Part shown: piece after piece, positions 9,616 to 54,252 of the stretch
Position numbering within the stretch: position 1 is the first letter of the stretch
Layout of the letters: every line of letters starts with the position of its first letter
NCBI GenBank assembly: GCA_964496365.1
Contig: CAZBZK010000001.1
Location: 18,254-82,253 of the forward strand
Reading direction: 5' to 3'
DNA length: 64,000 bases
From: an uncultured bacterium
GTDB lineage: Bacteria > Fidelibacterota > Marinisomatia > Marinisomatales > AB-629-J13
Notes under the pieces: generated by a model
Seen by the model: the letters and a program-made list of their open reading frames with translations, nothing else
The model's database searches: none
Told to the model about the DNA's origin: nothing
Position numbers and translations under genes: made by a program

Positions 9616-10431
9616 ATGAGATTAAAAAATTATTTTTATGTTACTCAATTGCTATTGGTTGCTTTTGTTTTTGGACACAAGGCAAAATATTTAAAAAATG
9701 ATTCTGTGTATAAATCAGTTTTACCATTGACAAAAGAAAAAAACATCCCCATAGATTTCGTGAAACAATCGTTTAAATCTGAATCTGTCAAAATTTATGA
9801 AGACATCCCGGACAGGTTTGAATTTGCCTATGAAAAAAAAGATTATCCGGAATATAAAAAGCTTTTCCTCACAGATAAACGAATAAAAGATGGCGTTGAG
9901 TTTTATCTATTAAATTCCGAATTGATCGAATCTATTTCCGATAGTTTGGACGTAGATCCATATTTAATTCTAAGTATTACAGGAATTGAAAGCAATTTTG
10001 GTTCCCATCCGGGACATTATGATGTGTTCAGTGCATTATACACAATTGTCCATTCCATGCCAAACCGAAAAAAGTGGGCATCAAAAGAACTCGCTGAATT
10101 TTTAGATTATTGTTATCGAGATAAAATTCCAGTTCATTCCATTACCGGATCTTATGCAGGAGCTTTTGGGTTCGGGCAGTTTATACCATCAAGTTTTAAC
10201 CGATTTGCCGTTGACTTTGATAAAGATGGCATCCGACGATTCGATGAGTGGGCTGATGTCATGGCAAGCATAGCCAATTATCTTTTAAAGAACGGGTACG
10301 AACCGGGAGGGTCGTTCGAGCGGGATTCAAAAAACTGGGATTCAGTTTATGCCTATAATCATCATGACAACTATGTGATGGCTGTACTTGATCTAAGGCT
10401 TGAGTATAAAAAAAGGATATCAGGCAGATAG
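9616..10431 (+). CDS. Lytic murein transglycosylase (MltB/SLT_2-like)
   Basis: Motifs ITGIESNFG (catalytic Glu region) and GSYAGAFGFGQFIPSSF are characteristic of MltB-type lytic transglycosylases. Confidence 0.7.
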   Translation: MRLKNYFYVTQLLLVAFVFGHKAKYLKNDSVYKSVLPLTKEKNIPIDFVKQSFKSESVKIYEDIPDRFEFAYEKKDYPEYKKLFLTDKRIKDGVEFYLLNSELIESISDSLDVDPYLILSITGIESNFGSHPGHYDVFSALYTIVHSMPNRKKWASKELAEFLDYCYRDKIPVHSITGSYAGAFGFGQFIPSSFNRFAVDFDKDGIRRFDEWADVMASIANYLLKNGYEPGGSFERDSKNWDSVYAYNHHDNYVMAVLDLRLEYKKRISGR

Positions 10432-20145: not shown

Positions 20146-21690
20146 ATGCGGTTTTGTTTTTTCAATTTTTTTGCTGTTTTTATACTTTCTTTTTTTATAG
20201 GGTGTTCATCTGATCAGAAAAAAGATGGATTACGTTTGGCTCTTTCTGCAGATATCAGGGGGTTCGATCCGGCTTTAGCAGTTGATGTGCGTAGCGGAAA
20301 ACTTATATCTCTGGTTTATGACAACCTAGTACATTTTGGTGATAGCACAAACTTAATTCCCGGACTTTCTTCGCAATGGAGTCTTTCAGATAATAGAATA
20401 GAATATCGTTTTTTACTTGAGAAGAATGCATACTTTCATGATGGAAGCCCCATAACTGCACAAGATGTGGTTTTTTCATTTGAGCGCATTTTAAATTCTG
20501 AAACACTTTCTCCTCAGCGGTGGTTGTTTACCCGAATTGAAGGTGCTGATGAGTTTATGGATGGCACTATTTCTTCGGTCAGAGGACTTATTGCAGAAAA
20601 TGATAGTTCGTTAATCCTTCGTCTAAAAAATCCCTTTTCGCCATTTATTCAATATTTGGCAATGCCGTCAGCATCAATAGTAAATTATAGACAAACAAAA
20701 AATATAAAAGAATTTCCAGCTGGAAGTGGTCCTTGGATGCTTTCAAAATGGGAACGAGATGGAGAAATACACTTGATTCGAAATCAAAATTATTGGGGAG
20801 TCAAACCAAAAGAAAAAACATTGACGTTTAGAATTCTCTCAGAAGCTATGACACAGTCAGCAGAATTTGAAGCCGGGAATCTTGATTTTATTGATATACC
20901 CTCTACTGAGTTTCACAGATGGACATCCCATCCAAATTGGAGTAGTCGTGTGATTCATCATGAAGACTTAAATAGTTGGTATATTGGATTGAATTGTTCA
21001 AGACCGCCTTTTAACGATGTACGGATTAGGAAAGCAATGAACCTCTCGATAGACAGAGAAAAACATCTTCAACTGCTTATTCCCGGTGGAACGTTAGCCG
21101 GGAGTGCCATTCCTCCCGCATTAATGAGGGGGGATAAAGCCGATCCTTACCCCTTTGACCCTGAACAAGCCCTGCGTCTCCTTGAGGTATCAGGATATTC
21201 AAACGGATTTTCAACCGAATTGTGGGTTGGAGGTGGTTCGGAAATGTTTCACGTGCTGGAAGCTTTTCAATCTGATTGGGCTTCTGTGGGAATAAATGTT
21301 ACTTTACTTCGGAGAGATTGGAATGTGTTTAAATCTGCAATAAAAAGGGGGCAGCCACCAATGTATTATTTAAACTGGACTGCGGATTATCCTGATGCTG
21401 AAAACTTTTTATTTCCTTTGTTTTTTTCAACAGAATCCATGTCAAAAAGAAACCGATATTCAAATCCTAAATTGGATAATCTAATCCTTAAAATTCAATC
21501 GGTTTCAAATGACAGCAATAGGATGAGTCTGGTTCGAGAAGCAAATGACATACTTCACCATGATGTGCCTTGGGTTTTCCTTTGGCATAAGGGAAGTTAT
21601 TCCATGACTCAACACCATATTTCAGGCTATGTTCCGAAACTAGTCTTTAATGCTGAAAGATTTATTCATTGGGTAAAGGACGATGGGTAA
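20146..21690 (+). CDS. ABC transporter substrate-binding lipoprotein, family 5 (peptide/nickel/glutathione type)
   Basis: Lipoprotein signal (FFIGCSS). 514 aa with family-5 SBP features (WxxxDxxTYxFxLR-like: WSLSDNRIEYRFLL; C-terminal NWTADYPD). Confidence 0.85.
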   Translation: MRFCFFNFFAVFILSFFIGCSSDQKKDGLRLALSADIRGFDPALAVDVRSGKLISLVYDNLVHFGDSTNLIPGLSSQWSLSDNRIEYRFLLEKNAYFHDGSPITAQDVVFSFERILNSETLSPQRWLFTRIEGADEFMDGTISSVRGLIAENDSSLILRLKNPFSPFIQYLAMPSASIVNYRQTKNIKEFPAGSGPWMLSKWERDGEIHLIRNQNYWGVKPKEKTLTFRILSEAMTQSAEFEAGNLDFIDIPSTEFHRWTSHPNWSSRVIHHEDLNSWYIGLNCSRPPFNDVRIRKAMNLSIDREKHLQLLIPGGTLAGSAIPPALMRGDKADPYPFDPEQALRLLEVSGYSNGFSTELWVGGGSEMFHVLEAFQSDWASVGINVTLLRRDWNVFKSAIKRGQPPMYYLNWTADYPDAENFLFPLFFSTESMSKRNRYSNPKLDNLILKIQSVSNDSNRMSLVREANDILHHDVPWVFLWHKGSYSMTQHHISGYVPKLVFNAERFIHWVKDDG

Positions 21691-37347: not shown

Positions 37348-38703
37348 TCAAAAGTTTGCGACTGATAAATCCCGACTAATTTGACTAATGAATTTGTTCA
37401 CAACCCCTTTTTGTTTATATACTTTTTCAACTTGCGAACAAGCATGCAATACTGTGGTATGGTCTCTTCCTCCAAAAAACAAACCGATTGAATGAAGTGT
37501 GTTTTGGGTTAGCTCCCTGCACAAATACATAGCAATATGCCTCGTTTTTACCAATTCTTTTCGTCGAGAAGGCCCTACTAATAATTTTAAAGGTACACTT
37601 CTTAATTCTGCTACTTTTTTTACTATATCCTCCAAGCTCAATTCTACAATCATTTCTTTCCCTAGCTTTTCCTTAATAACTTGTTCTACTAAGGTTCTGT
37701 TTATTTCAACACCATATAATGAAGAATTTGCCAGAAGACGAATAATGATTCCCTCTAAAACTCTAATGTTTGTTTTAATATGGGTGGCGATAAGTTCGGT
37801 TAAATCATAAGGAAGTTCTAGACCGTTTTGCTGTGCCTTTTCTAAGAGAATTGCAACTCTGGTTTCAAAGTCTGGAGGTTGAATGTCCACTGAAAGTCCA
37901 GACTGAAATCTGGAAACTAAACGCTCTTGGAGTCCCTCCATGTCTCCGGGGTAAGTATCTGCCGATAATACGATTTGTTTGTTCAATTGATACAATTCAT
38001 TGAATGTATGAAAAAACTGCTCCTGTGTTTGTTCCTTGCCTTTAAAAAACTGAATGTCGTCAACAAGTAAAATATCAGCTTTTCTATATTTTTTTGTAAA
38101 CTCGTTGTTTGTGTTTTTTTGAATGCTGTTGATAAACTCTTGAGTGAATTTTTCACTGGTTTCTAACACCACTTTTTTCTTTACATCCTCCGATAAAATT
38201 TGATTCCCAATCGCATGAAGTAGGTGTGTTTTTCCTAACCCGACACCTCCATAAATAACAAGCGGATTGAAATTTGATTCACCCGGGTTTTTGGCAACGG
38301 TTACTGCGGCGGCTTTTGCAAATTGACTATTAGAACCTTCAATAAAATTAGAAAATCTTTGATTTTTATTTATAAATGTAACTCTTTTGGGGGGTGCTAT
38401 GTTTTTCCTATCATTTACGTCTGGCTCATTAATTATTCTACCCGCTTCTGTGGAAACTGTATATTTTATATTAATTTTGTTTCCACGACTATTCATTACT
38501 TTTTTATCGATTATATCACGATAGTGTGTGTCCAGCCATTCAAAGAAAAATTGATTTGGAACCTCTAAGATAAGTTCTGTTTCGTTGAGTGCAACCGATT
38601 TTATAGGAGCAATCCACGTATTGAACGCATGTTCCGGCATTTCTGTTTTTAGTGATGTCCTTACAGAGTTCCAAACCGATTGATGCATCAGTATCTTTTC
38701 CAC
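37348..38703 (-). CDS. dnaA: Chromosomal replication initiator protein DnaA
   Basis: AAA+ Walker A GGVGLGKTHLLHA, box VII/sensor regions, and a C-terminal DNA-binding domain (IAMYLCRELT...IGLFFGGRDHTTVLHA). Confidence 0.95.
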   Translation of the reverse strand: MEKILMHQSVWNSVRTSLKTEMPEHAFNTWIAPIKSVALNETELILEVPNQFFFEWLDTHYRDIIDKKVMNSRGNKINIKYTVSTEAGRIINEPDVNDRKNIAPPKRVTFINKNQRFSNFIEGSNSQFAKAAAVTVAKNPGESNFNPLVIYGGVGLGKTHLLHAIGNQILSEDVKKKVVLETSEKFTQEFINSIQKNTNNEFTKKYRKADILLVDDIQFFKGKEQTQEQFFHTFNELYQLNKQIVLSADTYPGDMEGLQERLVSRFQSGLSVDIQPPDFETRVAILLEKAQQNGLELPYDLTELIATHIKTNIRVLEGIIIRLLANSSLYGVEINRTLVEQVIKEKLGKEMIVELSLEDIVKKVAELRSVPLKLLVGPSRRKELVKTRHIAMYLCRELTQNTLHSIGLFFGGRDHTTVLHACSQVEKVYKQKGVVNKFISQISRDLSVANF

Positions 38704-38706
38704 AAG

Positions 38707-38715
38707 TTATCCACA
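38707..38715 (+). promoter_or_regulatory. Perfect DnaA box TTATCCACA immediately upstream of dnaA start
   Basis: An exact 9-mer consensus 4 nt from the dnaA initiation codon (38703, minus strand). The position is consistent with autoregulation. Confidence 0.5.
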
Positions 38716-38803: not shown

Positions 38804-38830
38804 ATTGTTTGGGGATTTGTTTGGGGATTT
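38804..38830. repeat. Tandem G-tract repeat ATTGTTTGGGG ATTTGTTTGGGG ATTT in dnaA-rpmH intergenic region
   Basis: Direct reading of the sequence: two adjacent 11/12-nt units differing by one T. Confidence 0.6.
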
Positions 38831-38916
38831 CATGGTTGGAAAATAATTTATTGAAAAAAATTTGGCTTTTTTACATTATAAGTGTAGCTTTGCCGGCTAA
38901 ATAAGAGGATTATTTT

Positions 38917-39306: not shown

Positions 39307-40980
39307 ATGGATAGACGCTCCTTATTGGCGCTTTTTCTTATCGCTTTGGTGTTCATTGCGACACCTTATTATTTTAAACTTATTTCCCCCGAACCGCCAA
39401 TTGTAATAAAAGAAAAAGAACCCTCAACAATACCCAATGTTGAGCCTGCAAAACTCATTGCATTACCTAAAGATGACATATCCCCTCAAAATATAGAGGA
39501 AAAAACTATTTCCGTTGATACGCCTTTATATTCCGCTGAATTTTCCACATACAATGGAGGATCCATAAAAAGTTATAAATTGAAAGACTATTTAGGGGCT
39601 GACTCATCTGCAGTAAATCTGATTTTTCAACAAAACCTAAACAATCTATTTATGTCCTTTGTTGATATAAATGGAACTTTTAATTCTTTAAGTAACTCCT
39701 GGAATACCTCTGAAACCAACCATAGTTTAGATGTTTATGATTCTCCTGTTTCTTTAGAGTTTTACCGCACTTTTGGGAAAGAAACAATCGTTAAAACGAT
39801 TGAGGTCGACCCGCAGTCTTATGTAATAAACATTGTTACTGATTTGACTGAGATCAGTGATGATATTTCAGGTAGCACATATACACTGGGTTGGGAAGGG
39901 GGGCTTCCTCCTACAGAGACTAACCTTTCTGACGATGTTTCTTATTTTAATGGATACGTTTTTCAGGCGGACGATGCATATGAGTTTTCTAAAGTAGCTC
40001 CAAAACTGAAGAAAAGCTCAAACGGTGAGCTAGCGGAAATCCGAGGTGCTACTGAGTGGGCTGCTGTAAAAACAAAATATTTTGCTGCTGTTTTGCTGCC
40101 AAAAAATGGTAGTGATGTTTGTTGGGGAGGACAAAAACAAATTCAAATGGGTGATGTTTCTATTCCTTTGTTTAGTATGGCTGTTGGGTTAGAAAAAGAT
40201 CGAGCCTCTACTACAGCTTTATATTTAGGGCCCTTGGAATACAGTTCAATTAAAAAAGTAAATGCGGGAATTCCCTCCATAATGAATTTTGGGTTTTCGA
40301 TAATAAGACCCATTAGTAAGGGTGTCTTATGGCTTTTGAAGTCCCTTCATGTGTGGATTCCTAATTATGGAATTGTCCTTATTTTGTTTTCTATCCTCGT
40401 TAAAATTTTGGTTTACCCTCTTACCAAAAAAAGCCATCAGTCCTCTAAAGAAATGCAAGCTCTTCAACCAGAAATAGCAATTTTAAAAGAAAAACATAAA
40501 AACAACCCTCAAAAACTAAACCAAGCAACCATGGGGCTTTACAAAGAACATGGGGTAAACCCGCTGGGAGGTTGTCTTCCTATCTTGCTACAAATGCCCC
40601 TGCTTTTTTCTTTATTTCAGGTTTTCCGATCTACCATTGAGTTAAGAGGCGCTTACTTTGTTGGTTGGATTACTGACCTTTCTGCCCCTGATGTTGTTTT
40701 TACCTTACCGTTTTCCTTGCCTCTTTATGGAGATGGTGTTGCCATTCTCCCTTTGGTTATGGGAATTACAATGTTTATTCAACAAAAAATGATGCCAACA
40801 CAGTCTTCTGGTCAACAAAAGTTTATGGCTTATTTTATGACAGGATTTTTTGTTTTGCTTTTTAATACTTTCCCTTCTGGACTAAATTTATATTACACTT
40901 TGTTTAATGCTCTTACCATACTCCAACAAAAATATCTTACACCCTCTGTTCCCGAGATTGCATCTACACAGAAAAAATGA
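39307..40980 (+). CDS. yidC: Membrane protein insertase YidC
   Basis: 557 aa with an N-terminal TM, a large periplasmic domain and the conserved C-terminal core (YPLTKKSHQSSKEMQALQPE...GCLPILLQMPLLFSLF). Confidence 0.9.
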   Translation: MDRRSLLALFLIALVFIATPYYFKLISPEPPIVIKEKEPSTIPNVEPAKLIALPKDDISPQNIEEKTISVDTPLYSAEFSTYNGGSIKSYKLKDYLGADSSAVNLIFQQNLNNLFMSFVDINGTFNSLSNSWNTSETNHSLDVYDSPVSLEFYRTFGKETIVKTIEVDPQSYVINIVTDLTEISDDISGSTYTLGWEGGLPPTETNLSDDVSYFNGYVFQADDAYEFSKVAPKLKKSSNGELAEIRGATEWAAVKTKYFAAVLLPKNGSDVCWGGQKQIQMGDVSIPLFSMAVGLEKDRASTTALYLGPLEYSSIKKVNAGIPSIMNFGFSIIRPISKGVLWLLKSLHVWIPNYGIVLILFSILVKILVYPLTKKSHQSSKEMQALQPEIAILKEKHKNNPQKLNQATMGLYKEHGVNPLGGCLPILLQMPLLFSLFQVFRSTIELRGAYFVGWITDLSAPDVVFTLPFSLPLYGDGVAILPLVMGITMFIQQKMMPTQSSGQQKFMAYFMTGFFVLLFNTFPSGLNLYYTLFNALTILQQKYLTPSVPEIASTQKK

Positions 40981-42338
40981 GATCGGCCGATACAATTGTA
41001 GCAGCCGCTACTCCCTATGGTTTTGGTGGAATTTCCGTTGTCAGAATGAGTGGTGCCGATTCAAAAACCATAATTGAATCCCTTTCTCTCTCTAAAAAAC
41101 ACAAACCTGTTTTTCAACACAAAAAAGTTACCCTCGTTAGGATTTTGGATAACAACAGAGTCCCTTTTGAGGAAGGATTGGTTACATATTTCAAAAAACC
41201 TTTTTCTTATACAGGAGAAAATGTGGTTGAAATTTCCTGTCATGGAAATCCATCAATTGTAAATAAAATTATTTCCGTTTGTTGTGATTCCGGTGCACGA
41301 ATAGCTGAACACGGAGAGTTTACAAAACGTGCTTTTCTTAACGGAAAACTCGACTTAATTCAAGCAGAGTCCGTTGCCTCTCTTATACAATCAAAAACCG
41401 ATGTTGGGGCTTCTTTAAATTTTAAAATACTCGATGGAGGTCTGTCCAAAACCATGGGAGAACTAAAAGAGTCTCTGGTTAGTCTGCTGTCAAAGATTGA
41501 ATTTGAGCTTGATGTAAACGAAGAAGACCTACAGCCAAACCTTGAAAAAGAAACTCTAAGGTTTTTAGACACGTGTGAATCTCTACTAAACAAGGCGGCA
41601 TCAAACCATAGCTCATATCGGATGTTAAATGAAGGTGCAAATGTTGTGATTTGTGGAAGACCTAATGTTGGAAAATCTACCCTTCTCAACCTTCTTTCCG
41701 GCTCAAACAGGGCAATTACCAGCCCACAACCGGGAACCACGAGAGACACCATAGAGTCTTCCATTGTTCTTGGAGGCTACCCCGTTAAACTGATAGATAC
41801 TGCTGGGTTTCGCTCTTCTAAAGATGAAATTGAAATAGAAGGCATCGCAAGAACAGAACAAAATATATCAAAGGCAGATTGTGTTCTTGCGTTAACCTCT
41901 GTAGACTGTGATTTGACACCTCCGCCCTTTGATTGTGAGAAAAATACTATGATTTATGTCATTAATAAATCTGATCTGTGTACCCCTGTTTCCCTTGGGT
42001 TATTAAAAAAGAATTATCCTGATGCGTGTGTTTTATCAGCTAAATCTTCTGACGGAATAGAGAATCTATTGCGTGTTATTAAAAACAAACTTGGGCGAGC
42101 TCCATCCCTTGGTAGTTCCGTTCCTTTGGTAACGTCCCGACAAAACCAGATTGTAAAAAACGTTTTACACTGTATTAATGGTGCTAAAAAGCTTATATCT
42201 GCATCCGATAAATCCCCTTATGAACTTATCGCTTTTGAACTTCGTGATGCTCTGGGGTATTTAGATTTAATTATGGGGGAAACCATTACGGACGATATTC
42301 TTGATAGAGTTTTTAGCGATTTTTGTGTGGGTAAATAG
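40977..42338 (+). CDS. mnmE: tRNA modification GTPase MnmE
   Basis: N-terminal TIVAAATP...GGISVVRMSG, G domain GRPNVGKSTLLN / DTAG / NKSD, and the C-terminal FCVGK motif. Confidence 0.9.
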   Translation: MRSADTIVAAATPYGFGGISVVRMSGADSKTIIESLSLSKKHKPVFQHKKVTLVRILDNNRVPFEEGLVTYFKKPFSYTGENVVEISCHGNPSIVNKIISVCCDSGARIAEHGEFTKRAFLNGKLDLIQAESVASLIQSKTDVGASLNFKILDGGLSKTMGELKESLVSLLSKIEFELDVNEEDLQPNLEKETLRFLDTCESLLNKAASNHSSYRMLNEGANVVICGRPNVGKSTLLNLLSGSNRAITSPQPGTTRDTIESSIVLGGYPVKLIDTAGFRSSKDEIEIEGIARTEQNISKADCVLALTSVDCDLTPPPFDCEKNTMIYVINKSDLCTPVSLGLLKKNYPDACVLSAKSSDGIENLLRVIKNKLGRAPSLGSSVPLVTSRQNQIVKNVLHCINGAKKLISASDKSPYELIAFELRDALGYLDLIMGETITDDILDRVFSDFCVGK

Positions 42339-42352
42339 TTTCACGTGAAACA
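42338..42352. repeat. GTTTCACGTGAAACA element, copy 1 (14-bp perfect palindrome) at mnmE/mnmG junction
   Basis: Read directly. It starts on the last base of the mnmE stop codon, and its central GTG (42345) is the mnmG start codon. Confidence 0.9.
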
Positions 42353-44225
42353 TTCTGTCTTTCAAGTGGATGTGGTGGTTGCGGGTGGCGGACACGCAGG
42401 TATTGAGGCTTCTCTTGTATGTGGAAAGCTAGGACTGTCCGTAGCCCTAGTAACAATAGACACCTTGGCTATTGGGAGAATGTCTTGTAACCCAGCAATT
42501 GGAGGACAAGCAAAAGGACAAATAGTAAGAGAAATTGATGTTTTGGGTGGTGTAATGGGTCGGGTGGCAGACATATCTGCACTACAATATAAAATGCTTA
42601 ATAAGTCAAAGGGGCGAGCTGTTTGGTCTCCCCGTGCCCAGATCGATAAAAGACAGTATGAAAAAGAAGTGGTTTGTCAAGTATCCAAAAACAAACATGT
42701 CCATGTGGTTCGTGGGGAGGTTGTAGATGTTCTTGTTGTTGGAGGTGCTGTTTCTGGTGTTTTGTTAAGGTCTGGTGAAAAAATTTCGAGCAAGGCTGTT
42801 GTGATTACGTGTGGAACCTTTCTCGGTGGGCTTATTCATGTTGGTGATCAAAAAATAAAAGCGGGACGAATGGGAGAGACACGCAGCCAAGGAATAACGG
42901 AGTCCCTGTCTCTTCTTGGTTTTCGGTCTGGAAGGCTTAAAACAGGCACGCCTCCTCGGCTTAAAACATCCTCTGTTGATTTTACAAAATGTAGTGTGTC
43001 TTCGGGAGACAAACATCCTGTTCCTTTTTCTCATTTTACCTCCGTTTTTACCCCACCCAACGTGCCATGTTATTTAACCAAAACCAACAAAAAGAGTCAT
43101 AAGGTTATTCAGAAAAACCTTGAGTCTTCCCCCATGTTTTCTGGAGACGTCGGTGGGACAGGGCCACGGTATTGTCCATCCATAGAGGATAAAATATTTA
43201 GATTTTCTCAAAAAGACAGCCATGTTCTTTTTTTAGAACCAGAGTGGTATTGCTCGGATCAAATCTATTTGAATGGTTTTTCTACCAGCCTTCCTGAAGC
43301 AATTCAAAAACAAGCATTAATGTGTGTTTCCGGACTCGAAAAAGTAGAAATATTGAGGCCGGGATACGCAATTGAATATGATTTTTTCCCACCATCACAG
43401 CTTAAATCAACTCTTGAAACCAAATTAATATCTAATCTTTTTTTAGCCGGGCAAATTAACGGCACATCTGGATATGAAGAAGCTGCTGGGCAGGGTTTGG
43501 TTGCAGGAATAAATGCAGCAATGTCTATTCATGAACGAGACCCTTTGGTTTTAACAAGAGAAAACTCATATTTGGGTGTAATGATTGATGATTTAATCAC
43601 CAAAGACACCCTCGAGCCTTACCGAATGTTTACATCCCGTGCCGAAAACCGCTTGTTGTTGCGGTATTCTAATGCGGACAGAAGGCTGCTTGAGTTAGCA
43701 AAAAGAATTGGTGTCCTCTCTAAAAATGAGGTTGTGTTGTTAGAAAAGAAAATTTCTCTTACTGACTATTATATTAAACAAACAAAAACCTCTCTCTCCC
43801 CCCAAACAATTAACCCCGCTTTAGAAGCCAAAAACGAAACACCTGTAAATCAAAAAATTCCTTTTAAAGAGGTTCTTAAGCGTCCATCTGTATCCTTATC
43901 TGATTTTTATCCATTGTTTTTTAAAGAAACACAGGAAGAAGAATCTCTGCCAGGACACCACACAAAAGAATCTTTGCTTGAAGCCGAAACAACCATTAAA
44001 TATGAAGGATATATCAAAAGACAAAATGAGCACTTAAACAGAATAAAATCTAACCGAGAAAAACCAATTCCCTTTGGTTTTGACTATAAAAATCTGGTCG
44101 GTTTGTCTTCCGAAGCCAAAGAAAAACTAATGAACATTAAGCCTGAAAACCTGGGACAAGCCGGGAGGATTTCTGGAATAACACCATCAGACATCTCTGT
44201 CTTGTCGGTATATTTGTACAAATAA
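42345..44225 (+). CDS. mnmG: tRNA uridine 5-carboxymethylaminomethyl modification enzyme MnmG (GidA)
   Basis: FAD motif VDVVVAGGGHAGIEAS, plus MSCNPAIGG and GPRYCPSIEDK. 626 aa. GTG start, forced by an in-frame TAG 9 nt upstream. Confidence 0.95.
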   Translation: MKHSVFQVDVVVAGGGHAGIEASLVCGKLGLSVALVTIDTLAIGRMSCNPAIGGQAKGQIVREIDVLGGVMGRVADISALQYKMLNKSKGRAVWSPRAQIDKRQYEKEVVCQVSKNKHVHVVRGEVVDVLVVGGAVSGVLLRSGEKISSKAVVITCGTFLGGLIHVGDQKIKAGRMGETRSQGITESLSLLGFRSGRLKTGTPPRLKTSSVDFTKCSVSSGDKHPVPFSHFTSVFTPPNVPCYLTKTNKKSHKVIQKNLESSPMFSGDVGGTGPRYCPSIEDKIFRFSQKDSHVLFLEPEWYCSDQIYLNGFSTSLPEAIQKQALMCVSGLEKVEILRPGYAIEYDFFPPSQLKSTLETKLISNLFLAGQINGTSGYEEAAGQGLVAGINAAMSIHERDPLVLTRENSYLGVMIDDLITKDTLEPYRMFTSRAENRLLLRYSNADRRLLELAKRIGVLSKNEVVLLEKKISLTDYYIKQTKTSLSPQTINPALEAKNETPVNQKIPFKEVLKRPSVSLSDFYPLFFKETQEEESLPGHHTKESLLEAETTIKYEGYIKRQNEHLNRIKSNREKPIPFGFDYKNLVGLSSEAKEKLMNIKPENLGQAGRISGITPSDISVLSVYLYK

Positions 44226-44226
44226 A

Positions 44227-47200
44227 ATGGTTTCACGTGAAACAGAGTCGTGGACCATAGACCAATTTTTATATTGGCATAAGAAAAACATATTAAACGA
44301 ACGTTTTGATGAAACGGTTGATATGTCTATTGATGCTCTTTCTGTCGTTCTTTTGTCTTTGATAAACGCTTCTGATGGATTTGCTGTTGTTCTATCTCCA
44401 AAAGAGGCTGATGCCTTTTTGTTTTATTCATCCTGTTATGGTCTTTGTTCTGACTTGTCGTTTTTTTTGCCCGGGCAGAGCATGTCTGGTGTGGGGGTTT
44501 CAGGCTTTATAACCGAAAACCAACGGTTTCGTGAAGAGGCCTGTTTTGTGATGAGCCGTATGAAAAAAAGAGGGCTGTTGTTTTCTTCTCGGGATGCCGT
44601 GGATAGTGTTCTAATGCCAACAGTGTCGGACAATAACAAGCCGCTGAAATTTTCTATCAACACTAAAATAAAAATGTCTTTTGTGGTTCACTATCTCAAT
44701 CTCTGGGGCTATATAAAAACGGATCGGGTTGTTAATCCTTTATATTATTCTGTAAGAGGTGGGATTTTGGACATTTTTCCTGTAAACTCAAGGAACCCCG
44801 TTCGGGTCGAGTTTTTTGGCGATACCATTGAATCAATAAGGTTGTTTAATCCCTATTCACAGCGTACCATAAAAAAAACAAATCGGGTTATGATTCTTCC
44901 CCGTGGTTCGGAAAGACAACAAAAAAAACAACCAATTTCCTCCTTTGTTCGAGAAAAAAAGGAGATATGGGAGTGGGAAATAAAGCAAGCAAACCCTAAC
45001 CTTTACCGTTTAAAATTAAACAAAAAACAGCATGAGTTATCTTGGGGGTCATATCTCCCTTTTTCAAAGAAGCTCATTCTCTCTTTTTCCGAGAACAATA
45101 TAAATAAAACTTGTTTTGTGTTTTCTGAAAAAAACGGTCCCCTAAGGCTCCCTGACCCTTTTCAAAAGCCATCAAACATAAAACGAGTTAATGCAACGAT
45201 TGGTTCTGGGTTTTTCCTTAAAGAAAATGTGGCTGTTTTGGGAACAAACAATATTCCAGAGCTATCCGTTTCCCAAAAATCCCGGTGGATGATTGATGGA
45301 GATGGTGGAGCTTCTCACTCTAAAATATTAGACATTTCTGACCTTGAGTGGGAAGAGCCCCTTGTTCACGAAGATTTTGGCATCGGAACCTATCGTGGTT
45401 TAGAGGTAACCAGCGGGGGAGAGTGTATTAAATTAAAATATGCTGATGGTGGTGCTGTATATGTTCCAGTAGCCAGCTTTCATAAGATCCACCGCCTCGT
45501 TGGCGTTCCTGATGGATCCATTAAAATATCGTCCTTAAAAACAAAACAGTGGGGGCGGAAAAAAACAGCAGTAAAACAATATGCGGAAAGCATTGCTGGA
45601 GATTTACTAAAAACATATTTGGAAAGACAAGCCTCTCGTGGATTTTCATACACCCACAACGGAGACTTATACAAGGCGGTTTGTGAGTCTTTCCCGTATA
45701 ACGAAACGAAAGATCAGCTTGTTGCATTAAAAGATGTGATTCTGGACATGAAACGCTCCGTTCCTATGGATAGATTGATTTGTGGCGATGTTGGTTTTGG
45801 AAAAACTGAAATTGCAATTCGAGCTAGCATAATGGCAATAGAGAGTGGTAAAATGGTTTTTGTCTTGGCCCCAACTACGGTATTGGCAAACCAACACTTT
45901 ATTAGCTTTTGTGGACGGTTTTCCCCTTTGGGGGCTCGTGTTGAGCTTTTATCCAGATTTAGAACAAAAAGAGAACAAAATGGTATTATTGAGTTGGTAG
46001 GTAATGGCAAAATAGATGTTTTAGTTGGTACACATCGCTTGCTCTCTGATGATGTTAATACAGAAGGTTTAGGTTTAATTGTCATTGATGAAGAACATCG
46101 TTTTGGAGTTAAACAAAAAGAAAAAATTAAGTCCCTAAAGGCTTCCATAGACATTTTAACACTTACTGCAACACCCATTCCCAGAACATTGAAACAATCC
46201 TTGACTGGAATGAAAAACATAAGCGTAATAAACACCCCCCCCAAATCAAGAAAACCTATTAAAACTTTTGTCCTTTATTTTGATTGGGAGAAAATATTTA
46301 AGATTATTGAAGCAGAGGTCAACCGAGGAGGACAAGTTTACTTCGTCCATAATAATATTCAGTCTCTACCGTTTATCAATGAAAAAATTGAAACAAAGTT
46401 TAAGAACTGTATTGTTCGCTCCGCTCATGGTAAAATGAACAGTAGGGTTCTGGAGAAAACAATGCTTGGTTTTTTCAATTCAGAAATTGACATTTTATGT
46501 TGTACCACTATCGTTGGATCAGGGTTAGACATTCCTAGTGCAAACACGATGATTGTCAACAACGCCCATTGTTTCGGGCTTTCACAACTTTATCAGATTC
46601 GTGGTCGGGTTGGCAGAAGCGTTCAACAAGGATTTTGCTATCTTTTTGTTCCAAAAGGCAGAGCTGTTGAGGGGGTCGCCTTCCAGCGATTAAAAACCCT
46701 TGAGCAAAACACAAGTCTTGGTTCCGGTTATAAGGTTGCACTAAAAGACATGAATATAAGGGGAGCTGGAGACCTGTTTGGTACGAAACAAAGTGGTGGG
46801 GTTTCAAGCGTGGGGTTTCATATGTATAATAAGATTTTGAAAGAAGCTCTCGATAAAGAACGTGGAATAAAACACGAGAAAAACATCCCAAAAATTTCTA
46901 CTGCCTTTTCTTCCGGAATACCAGAAGACTATATGCCTCTCGCTGAAGACCGTCTATATTTTTACCAAACATTAGCATTGGCAAGCTCACTAAAAAAAGT
47001 TAATGACATAAAAGAGGAGGTAATCGATCGGTTTGGAAGGGTTCCTGTTGGTGTCTTGTTCTTGTTGGAGATTTCAAGGCTTCGTGTTTTGTTAACCAAC
47101 TCTTCTGTTCAACAAGTATATATTCATAAAAAAGGTCTCGATCTTTCCGTTACCTCTTTGTCTCCTTTTACCGAGGTTGAAGATTTTTATACTCAAATCT

Positions 47201-47349
47201 CCTTATCTTTTGGAATCAGAAACAATGACATTTTATTAAAAAACAAAAAAGACAAGCGTTTATCCGTGTCGTTAAACGGAATGGAAATTCAACCCGATAC
47301 TGTGGGCAACGTTATTTCATCTTTTGAAATGATGTTTTTAAACAATTAG
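44227..47349 (+). CDS. mfd: Transcription-repair coupling factor Mfd
   Basis: CarD-like RNAP-interacting region (HEDFGIGTYRGL) and superfamily-2 helicase motifs GDVGFGKTE, VIDEEHRFG, TATPIPRT and QLYQIRGRVGRS. At 1040 aa it is somewhat short, and the N-terminal UvrB-homology module looks divergent. Confidence 0.9.
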   Translation: MVSRETESWTIDQFLYWHKKNILNERFDETVDMSIDALSVVLLSLINASDGFAVVLSPKEADAFLFYSSCYGLCSDLSFFLPGQSMSGVGVSGFITENQRFREEACFVMSRMKKRGLLFSSRDAVDSVLMPTVSDNNKPLKFSINTKIKMSFVVHYLNLWGYIKTDRVVNPLYYSVRGGILDIFPVNSRNPVRVEFFGDTIESIRLFNPYSQRTIKKTNRVMILPRGSERQQKKQPISSFVREKKEIWEWEIKQANPNLYRLKLNKKQHELSWGSYLPFSKKLILSFSENNINKTCFVFSEKNGPLRLPDPFQKPSNIKRVNATIGSGFFLKENVAVLGTNNIPELSVSQKSRWMIDGDGGASHSKILDISDLEWEEPLVHEDFGIGTYRGLEVTSGGECIKLKYADGGAVYVPVASFHKIHRLVGVPDGSIKISSLKTKQWGRKKTAVKQYAESIAGDLLKTYLERQASRGFSYTHNGDLYKAVCESFPYNETKDQLVALKDVILDMKRSVPMDRLICGDVGFGKTEIAIRASIMAIESGKMVFVLAPTTVLANQHFISFCGRFSPLGARVELLSRFRTKREQNGIIELVGNGKIDVLVGTHRLLSDDVNTEGLGLIVIDEEHRFGVKQKEKIKSLKASIDILTLTATPIPRTLKQSLTGMKNISVINTPPKSRKPIKTFVLYFDWEKIFKIIEAEVNRGGQVYFVHNNIQSLPFINEKIETKFKNCIVRSAHGKMNSRVLEKTMLGFFNSEIDILCCTTIVGSGLDIPSANTMIVNNAHCFGLSQLYQIRGRVGRSVQQGFCYLFVPKGRAVEGVAFQRLKTLEQNTSLGSGYKVALKDMNIRGAGDLFGTKQSGGVSSVGFHMYNKILKEALDKERGIKHEKNIPKISTAFSSGIPEDYMPLAEDRLYFYQTLALASSLKKVNDIKEEVIDRFGRVPVGVLFLLEISRLRVLLTNSSVQQVYIHKKGLDLSVTSLSPFTEVEDFYTQISLSFGIRNNDILLKNKKDKRLSVSLNGMEIQPDTVGNVISSFEMMFLNN
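44230..44244. repeat. GTTTCACGTGAAACA element, copy 2, at mnmG/mfd junction
   Basis: Read directly. It is an identical 15-mer beginning 3 nt after the mfd ATG (44227). Confidence 0.9.
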
Positions 47350-49467: not shown

Positions 49468-49481
49468 TTTTATTAACATCA

Positions 49482-49700
49482 TTATCCACAACGACCCTGT
49501 TTTATGTTTTTTCAGTATTATCCTCATTTCTTTAAGATAATATTCACATTTTCATAATAGTTTTAAACATAAAGAAACCCTTTAAATAAAAACCTTTTTT
49601 AATTGATTTTATTTATTCACAGTTCGTCTTGGATATATTTATCCACATTGTCCACGTGTATATTATTATTACTAATTTAATACTTAGTTAAATTTAAAAA
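49482..49700. other. Candidate chromosomal replication origin (oriC): DnaA-box cluster plus trio-like repeat plus AT-rich unwinding region
   Basis: All boxes are in the same orientation: TTATCCACA 49482-49490 and 49639-49647 (perfect); TTATCCTCA 49518-49526 and TTATTCACA 49613-49621 (1 mismatch); ATATTCACA 49540-49548 and TTGTCCACG 49648-49656 (2 mismatches). ATATTATTATTACTA follows at 49660-49674, and A/T-rich sequence continues to about 49700. Confidence 0.65.
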
Positions 49701-49772
49701 CCTTCGACAATTTGTCTTTTTCTCAATTTGTCTTTAACACAAACCTATTTAAATTTGGGGACTTTATTTGCA

Positions 49773-52006: not shown

Positions 52007-52010
<4 letters not shown>
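50946..52010 (+). CDS. recF: DNA replication and repair protein RecF
   Basis: Walker A GKNGSGKTSILEA, signature region SQGEHKW, Walker B FFLLDDLFSELD. Confidence 0.9.

Positions 52011-54252
<2,242 letters not shown>

Follow-up and report, generated by a model that had tools for sequence, protein, structure and literature searches.

The window analysed here is a 64-kb stretch of the genome of an uncultivated bacterium of the Fidelibacterota (64,000 nucleotides), and its subject is a short palindrome at the two borders of mnmG. The 15-nucleotide element GTTTCACGTGAAACA, which contains a perfect 14-bp palindrome, occurs in the window exactly twice, at 42338-42352 and at 44230-44244, both in positions noted in a previous reading of the letters alone (the sequence-only reading), whose observation we confirm. 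Extended to 16 bp, both copies resemble parS, the chromosomal loading site of the partition protein ParB (Spo0J), and are referred to below as parS-1 and parS-2. The two elements and the three genes that they adjoin are:

42337-42352, no strand assigned: parS-1, AGTTTCACGTGAAACA, 15 of 16 positions identical to the consensus TGTTTCACGTGAAACA
44229-44244, no strand assigned: parS-2, GGTTTCACGTGAAACA, 15 of 16 positions identical to the consensus
40977-42338, plus strand: mnmE (trmE), with Pfam domains TrmE_N, MnmE_helical and MMR_HSR1; its stop codon abuts parS-1
42345-44225, plus strand: mnmG (gidA), Pfam GIDA (E = 4e-152), start codon GTG, stop codon TAA at 44223-44225
44227-47349, plus strand: mfd, the transcription-repair coupling factor, with Pfam domains TRCF, CarD_TRCF_RID, UvrB_inter, DEAD and Helicase_C; ATG at 44227-44229

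The first copy begins, as had been described, on the last base of the mnmE stop codon (TAG, 42336-42338). parS-1 overlaps this codon, fills the six bases that separate this stop from the start of mnmG, and includes the GTG with which mnmG starts (42345-42347). The second copy had been placed 3 nt behind the mfd ATG; in fact it follows that ATG directly, and the first base of parS-2 is the last base of the ATG, 4 nt past the mnmG stop. The spacing between parS-1 and parS-2 is 1.9 kb. Read as peptide, copy 1 gives F-H-[V/M]-K-H and copy 2 gives V-S-R-E-T at the N-terminus of Mfd, the frames being different. An independent Logan assembly, 99.8% identical, retains both sites with identical gene starts, and its separate gene call yields the same 626-aa MnmG product. 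In agreement with the sequence-only reading, no third full copy was found in the window: searches with the 14-mer at up to two mismatches, and with the parS 16-mer TGTTTCACGTGAAACA at up to three, returned only these two places.

The published consensus of chromosomal parS is TGTT(N)CACGTGAAACA, i.e. TGTTNCACGTGAAACA (PMC7022226). Each copy agrees with the 16-mer at 15 of 16 positions, and the sole mismatch is at position 1. The parS of Mycobacterium smegmatis, GTTTCACGTGAAAC, contains the same 14-mer as the core of the window sites; that of Streptococcus pneumoniae is AGTTTCACGTGAAACT, from which copy 1 differs at position 16 alone, and that of Hyphomonas is TGTTTCACGTGAAACA (PMC7022226, Table 1). 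The latter word, with two mismatches, serves as a parS detector in another paper. By sequence, both copies are parS-consensus palindromes, and the pair reads as canonical, previously unannotated parS sites of an uncultivated bacterium of the FCB group, by which we mean here Bacteroidota, Ignavibacteria, Chlorobi, Calditrichota, KSB1 and Marinimicrobia/Fidelibacterota.

How surprising the repeat is depends on how the question is put. The earlier argument from rarity, that a given 14-mer is expected far less than once in 64 kb, holds only for a word chosen beforehand, and repeated 15-mers as such are frequent in this AT-rich window (28 seen against ~10 in Markov simulations), as a chance coincidence would have it. 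The improbable event is that a perfect 14-bp palindrome should be repeated: this happened in 3 of the 200 simulations. With the parS core taken as a pre-specified word, 2.5e-4 copies are expected and the probability of two or more is ~3e-8. The same word is moreover found at the same junctions in relatives, and we give coincidence practically no credence.

Two further elements of the window resemble the pair in part. The half-like third copy suspected in the sequence-only reading is real: the 10-mer GTTTCACGTG, half a parS together with the CACGTG core, occurs for a third time at 21246-21255, within an SBP_bac_5 gene, where chance would supply 0.07 copies. Half-site binding has been reported for some ParBs. 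The heptamer half-site GTTTCAC shows no enrichment over the window (12 seen, 10 expected). A second perfect 14-bp palindrome, TATTTGTACAAATA, lies at 44211-44224, within the final codons of mnmG and 5 nt ahead of parS-2; as the aligned relatives do not share it, it probably arose by chance in AT-rich sequence.

The comparative set consisted of 160 mnmG loci (L001-L161; 1.95 Mb), in which sites were counted at up to two mismatches to the parS 16-mer. The nearest MnmG relatives (52-59% identity) belong to Neomarinimicrobiota/Fidelibacterota metagenome-assembled genomes and marine metagenome contigs; the other loci are labelled mostly Bacteroidota, Ignavibacteria, Chlorobi, Calditrichota or KSB1. 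Scans of genomes and metagenomes gave no MnmG above ~59% identity, and close relatives are to be understood below at the level of the clade, not of the species. The 160 loci hold 190 parS-like sites compared with ~0.5 expected; for 20 palindromes shuffled at constant composition, the count was 0-4 each. Of the 190, 167 are no further than 150 bp from the start or the stop of mnmG, where sites are ~250 times as dense as in the flanks. One or both borders carry a site in 109 of the 160 loci, and in 27 both do, with parAB mostly not adjacent. Upstream sites mostly begin 1-30 nt before the mnmG start, and downstream sites mostly begin 0-15 nt past the stop.

The principal variants among these sites are GTTTCACGTGAAAC (74 sites), GTTCCACGTGGAAC (50), GTTCCACGTGAAAC (30) and GTTTCACGTGGAAC (13). 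Variation is centred on positions 5 (T/C) and 12 (A/G), which are the positions given as N in the published consensus. Neither neighbouring gene travels with the site: where the site is downstream (55 loci), 51 are without an adjacent mfd, and where it is upstream (81 loci), 61 are without mnmE on that side. Because these adjacencies are mostly absent, the site follows the borders of mnmG rather than a regulated gene. In searchable full text we found no description of a linkage of parS to mnmG/gidA borders, nor of parS serving as the mnmG initiation codon; the survey by Livny et al. (2007) lies outside that coverage.

Within the closest clade the synteny is dnaA(-)-yidC-mnmE-mnmG-(mfd)-ppi-surA-dnaN-gyrB. 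Among loci at 54-58% identity, a parS sits exactly on the mnmE stop/mnmG start in 10 of 12 and 0-15 nt past the mnmG stop in 12 of 12. The sequence-only reading had named absence of the motif from orthologous junctions as the result that would speak against it; alignment of these junctions gave the opposite. At the upstream junction the 14-mer is invariant in all 11 closest-clade sequences and the flanking columns are far less conserved. At the downstream junction bases 1-13 are invariant in 14 of 14 sequences and base 14 in 13 of 14, with flanks that barely align. A subclade lacking mfd keeps the downstream site at the 3′ end of mnmG, ahead of surA. In the loci that do carry mfd, an mfd open reading frame of ~1030-1090 aa crosses the site in two frames, reading M(x)VSRE(T/N) in five loci, the window included, and (L)FHVK in three. 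Since mfd passes through the site in two frames, the constraint acts on DNA and not on the peptide, which bears out the earlier proposal of conservation at the nucleotide level in differing frames. As judged from the alignments, the element is conserved as DNA, independently of frame and of neighbours, and is degenerate at N.

The same relatives bear on the start codon of mnmG. The GTG at 42345 had been called the only usable start on the grounds of an in-frame TAG 9 nt upstream. That TAG is present, but the window by itself does not single out this codon, as it offers more in-frame GTGs at 42366, 42372 and 42375. It is the relatives that favour it: in 10 of the 10 closest relatives with a junction site, mnmG can be read in frame and without interruption from the central GTG of parS, and in these no other ATG, GTG or TTG occurs among the residues inspected ahead of the GGGHAG motif. 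Across the wider set, ~20 of 70 sites have the GTG in frame with mnmG, as many as chance would give, and the gene there looks to start at an ATG further downstream. The comparison supports the central GTG of parS as a conserved mnmG start codon in the Marinimicrobia-like clade. A more distant locus, L098, carries at ~9999-10014 the variant CGTTTCACATGAAACA, whose central codon is an in-frame ATG start of mnmG; here palindrome perfection looks as if it had been traded off against start-codon strength.

Both sites lie close to genes and sequences typical of a replication origin, of which two are listed here:

37348-38703, minus strand: dnaA, with Pfam domains Bac_DnaA, DnaA_N and Bac_DnaA_C
49468-49727, no strand assigned: candidate oriC, a spacer of 23% GC upstream of dnaN, with DnaA boxes at 49482, 49518, 49613 and 49639

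Two of the four boxes in the spacer are perfect, and two further DnaA boxes mark the 5′ end of dnaA (38696-38715). The plus-strand order is rpmH-yidD-yidC-mnmE-mnmG-mfd, two PPIase/SurA genes, and dnaN-recF-gyrB-gyrA; AT skew becomes positive from ~50 kb. The window is an origin region, and the spacer upstream of dnaN is likely to be oriC. From dnaA to parS-1 the distance is 3.6 kb, and from the candidate oriC it is 5.2 kb to parS-2 and 7.1 kb to parS-1; the pair thus has the origin-proximal location of chromosomal parS.

Some features of this region were recorded in passing. dnaA is inverted and lies 11 kb from dnaN, a dnaA(-)...dnaN layout shared by the closest Marinimicrobia-like loci (L001, L082, L086 and L087). 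The AT-rich spacer between dnaA and rpmH holds, beside the two DnaA boxes, a tandem direct repeat (two copies of gtttggggatt, 38810-38833), which may represent a further element, related to the origin or regulatory. A small gene of the DciA family (91 aa, PF05258) lies between recF and gyrB at ~52010-52285 of the window, according to a gene call on a JGI contig of the same organism (L162, 1539-1814). uvrA is found just left of the window (L164, 1-1525), ~7-8 kb from position 1.

The sequence-only reading had offered three explanations of the palindrome, as an RNA structure, as an operator and as a recombination scar. As RNA, a GUUUC/GAAAC stem with an ACGU loop would lie on the initiation regions of mnmG and mfd and control their translation or processing. 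Both copies do overlap or abut start codons, and the isolated 14-mer folds better than shuffled versions of itself (z = -2.1). The folding energy of the hairpin is only -2.3 kcal/mol, however, and the minimum-energy folds of both 55-nt contexts do without it, with z-scores (+0.46 and -0.88) short of significance. Across relatives the site is found anywhere from 0 to ~90 nt upstream of mnmG, or past its stop, and the bases that would form the loop vary no more than those of the stem. In 30 of the 190 sites the variant is the asymmetric GTTCCACGTGAAAC, in which C stands opposite A and a stem pair is broken without compensation. With this weak stem, these uncompensated variants and an Rfam search that gave only noise, the stable stem and compensatory changes of a cis-regulatory RNA hairpin were not seen, and we consider a role as RNA very improbable. 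A DNA site for a dimeric regulator other than ParB, such as an SOS- or repair-type regulator of mfd, fits the inverted repeat with its CACGTG centre and the location of one copy where a repair gene begins. Against it stand the canonical parS sequence itself and the neighbour counts given above, by which the site is usually found apart from mfd and mnmE. A scan for promoters and terminators was empty at either site, without promoter-like hexamers, and both sites fall within a run of closely spaced genes that all point the same way. uvrA (L164) and mfd share no palindrome, parS-like or other, which weakens the idea of an SOS regulon further. We regard such an operator as quite unlikely, if slightly less so than the hairpin. 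The broader option of a DNA element bound by a protein dimer was rightly included, as ParB binds this palindrome as a dimer; it had been made without recognizing parS, and its link to SOS and mfd did not survive the comparison.

The third explanation, in which a 1.9-kb mnmG cassette was inserted or recombined and left direct repeats at its ends, draws on the picture of a single gene flanked by two identical 15-mers. Yet mnmG is a universal housekeeping gene within conserved origin-region synteny, no further repeat or integrase was found in the flanks, and the arrangement recurs at mnmG borders across several phyla (109 of 160 loci, 27 of them on both sides), as a palindrome with the known variant spectrum of parS. 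A scar is therefore highly improbable. In its interpretation the sequence-only reading is partly supported.

The identification of the pair as parS also has to be weighed against the proteins that would use it. Several observations count against it. No match to ParA or ParB was obtained in the window when Spo0J and Soj served as tblastn probes; nor was parA or parB found in the ~9 kb past each window end, which were recovered from JGI 3300035250 contigs of the same population by exact-protein look-ups with window-encoded proteins. In the closest clade, too, parA and parB are absent within 10 kb of mnmG. Because neither gene was found in ~82 kb, a cognate ParB in the host is an assumption. Position 1, moreover, is A or G in the two copies and T in the consensus. 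The extensions likewise contain no additional parS, which leaves two sites over ~82 kb (the window and ~9 kb per side). Among the 160 loci, ParB was seen only in L067 and L075 and ParA in L009 and L092, with Pfam confirming the matches that were checked (L067, L075 and L009). L067 has the order parS, mnmG, parS, a gap of ~0.75 kb and parA-parB (Pfam ParB_N and HTH_ParB); in L075, ParA-ParB adjoins mnmG and there is no parS-like site. Because of the sequence match, the proximity to the origin, and conservation at the nucleotide level regardless of frame and neighbouring genes, we conclude that both elements are very probably chromosomal parS sites, and as such putative loading sites of ParB/Spo0J.

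Established ParABS biology (PMC7022226, PMC13438810) suggests how such a pair would work. ParB dimers would bind each palindrome through their helix-turn-helix domain; binding of cytidine triphosphate would then shut ParB into a clamp, which would slide off onto flanking DNA. Two sites 1.9 kb apart could in this way give rise to one ParB domain across mnmE-mnmG-mfd, beside the origin. ParA would use this domain to segregate sister origins, and the domain would typically load or recruit SMC condensin as well. ParB binding at the window sites, and every step that follows from it, we infer by analogy with these systems. The sites are placed on gene junctions because the lineage has nearly no intergenic DNA there.

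A bolder reading combines several of these points: a parS at the mnmG borders that is deeply conserved in the FCB group and has outlasted the departure of parAB, a dual-coding site in the Marinimicrobia-like clade, a parS-2 in the first codons of mfd, and a putative control of expression. We hold this combination to be unlikely as a whole, albeit less remote than the three alternatives weighed above. If the dual coding is true, the same 16 bp would be the overlap with the mnmE stop, the initiation codon of mnmG and a putative ParB loading site. If, in addition, ParB occupancy or clamp loading measurably alters how mnmG and mfd are transcribed or translationally coupled, expression would have a control point in the centromere, tied to the cell cycle. 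The chief value of identifying the pair as parS is one of annotation, as it would mark the centromere and help to locate the origin of an uncultivated Marinimicrobia/Fidelibacterota-like bacterium; a striking "unknown palindrome" turns out to be a textbook element. As parS hugs the borders of mnmG in most of the sampled FCB-group genomes, it could anchor the search for origin regions in metagenome bins. A start codon, a stop overlap and a parS in a gap of six bases would also illustrate the overlapping information that a streamlined genome tolerates.

Among known systems, two resemble the pair in layout. The site of Noc is, like parS, a 16-bp palindrome read by a protein of the ParB family and is related to it in sequence; it reportedly runs about TATTTCCCGGGAAATA. 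The bases that separate it from parS are A2, C7, G10 and T15, and Noc sites are scattered and excluded from the terminus, not clustered at the origin. Noc is known from Firmicutes only. The window sites have G2, A7, T10 and C15 and are by these bases of the parS type. LexA SOS boxes share with them only the inverted-repeat layout of half-site, spacer and half-site; the sequence is another one, there is no promoter context and, across relatives, no link to repair genes. SOS operators lie in promoters of DNA-damage genes and travel with them, which was not observed for this element.

The closest counterpart is the parS of ParABS systems, as in the Spo0J sites of Bacillus subtilis (TGTTNCACGTGAAACA), M. 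smegmatis and S. pneumoniae. The window sites differ from these in having A or G at position 1, in that one of them doubles as the start-codon context of mnmG, and in the absence of parAB from the ~82 kb around them. They agree with them in the identical 14-bp core and 15 of 16 positions of the 16-mer, a low copy number as far as the ~82 kb extend, location near the origin, tolerance within coding sequence and, in relatives, degeneracy at positions 5 and 12. A further point of comparison is the origin-linked gidA-gidB-parA-parB cluster, known from many bacteria, among them Pseudomonas aeruginosa (PMC13438810) and Vibrio cholerae (PMC4010829). In P. aeruginosa the functional sites parS1-4 lie 10-20 kb from parAB and not at the borders of gidA (PMC13438810). 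The window and its closest clade differ from the cluster in having neither gidB nor parAB adjacent, and mfd or surA follows mnmG. They share with it a parS linked to gidA/mnmG near the origin, and L067, with parS on both sides of mnmG, still keeps mnmG followed by parA-parB.

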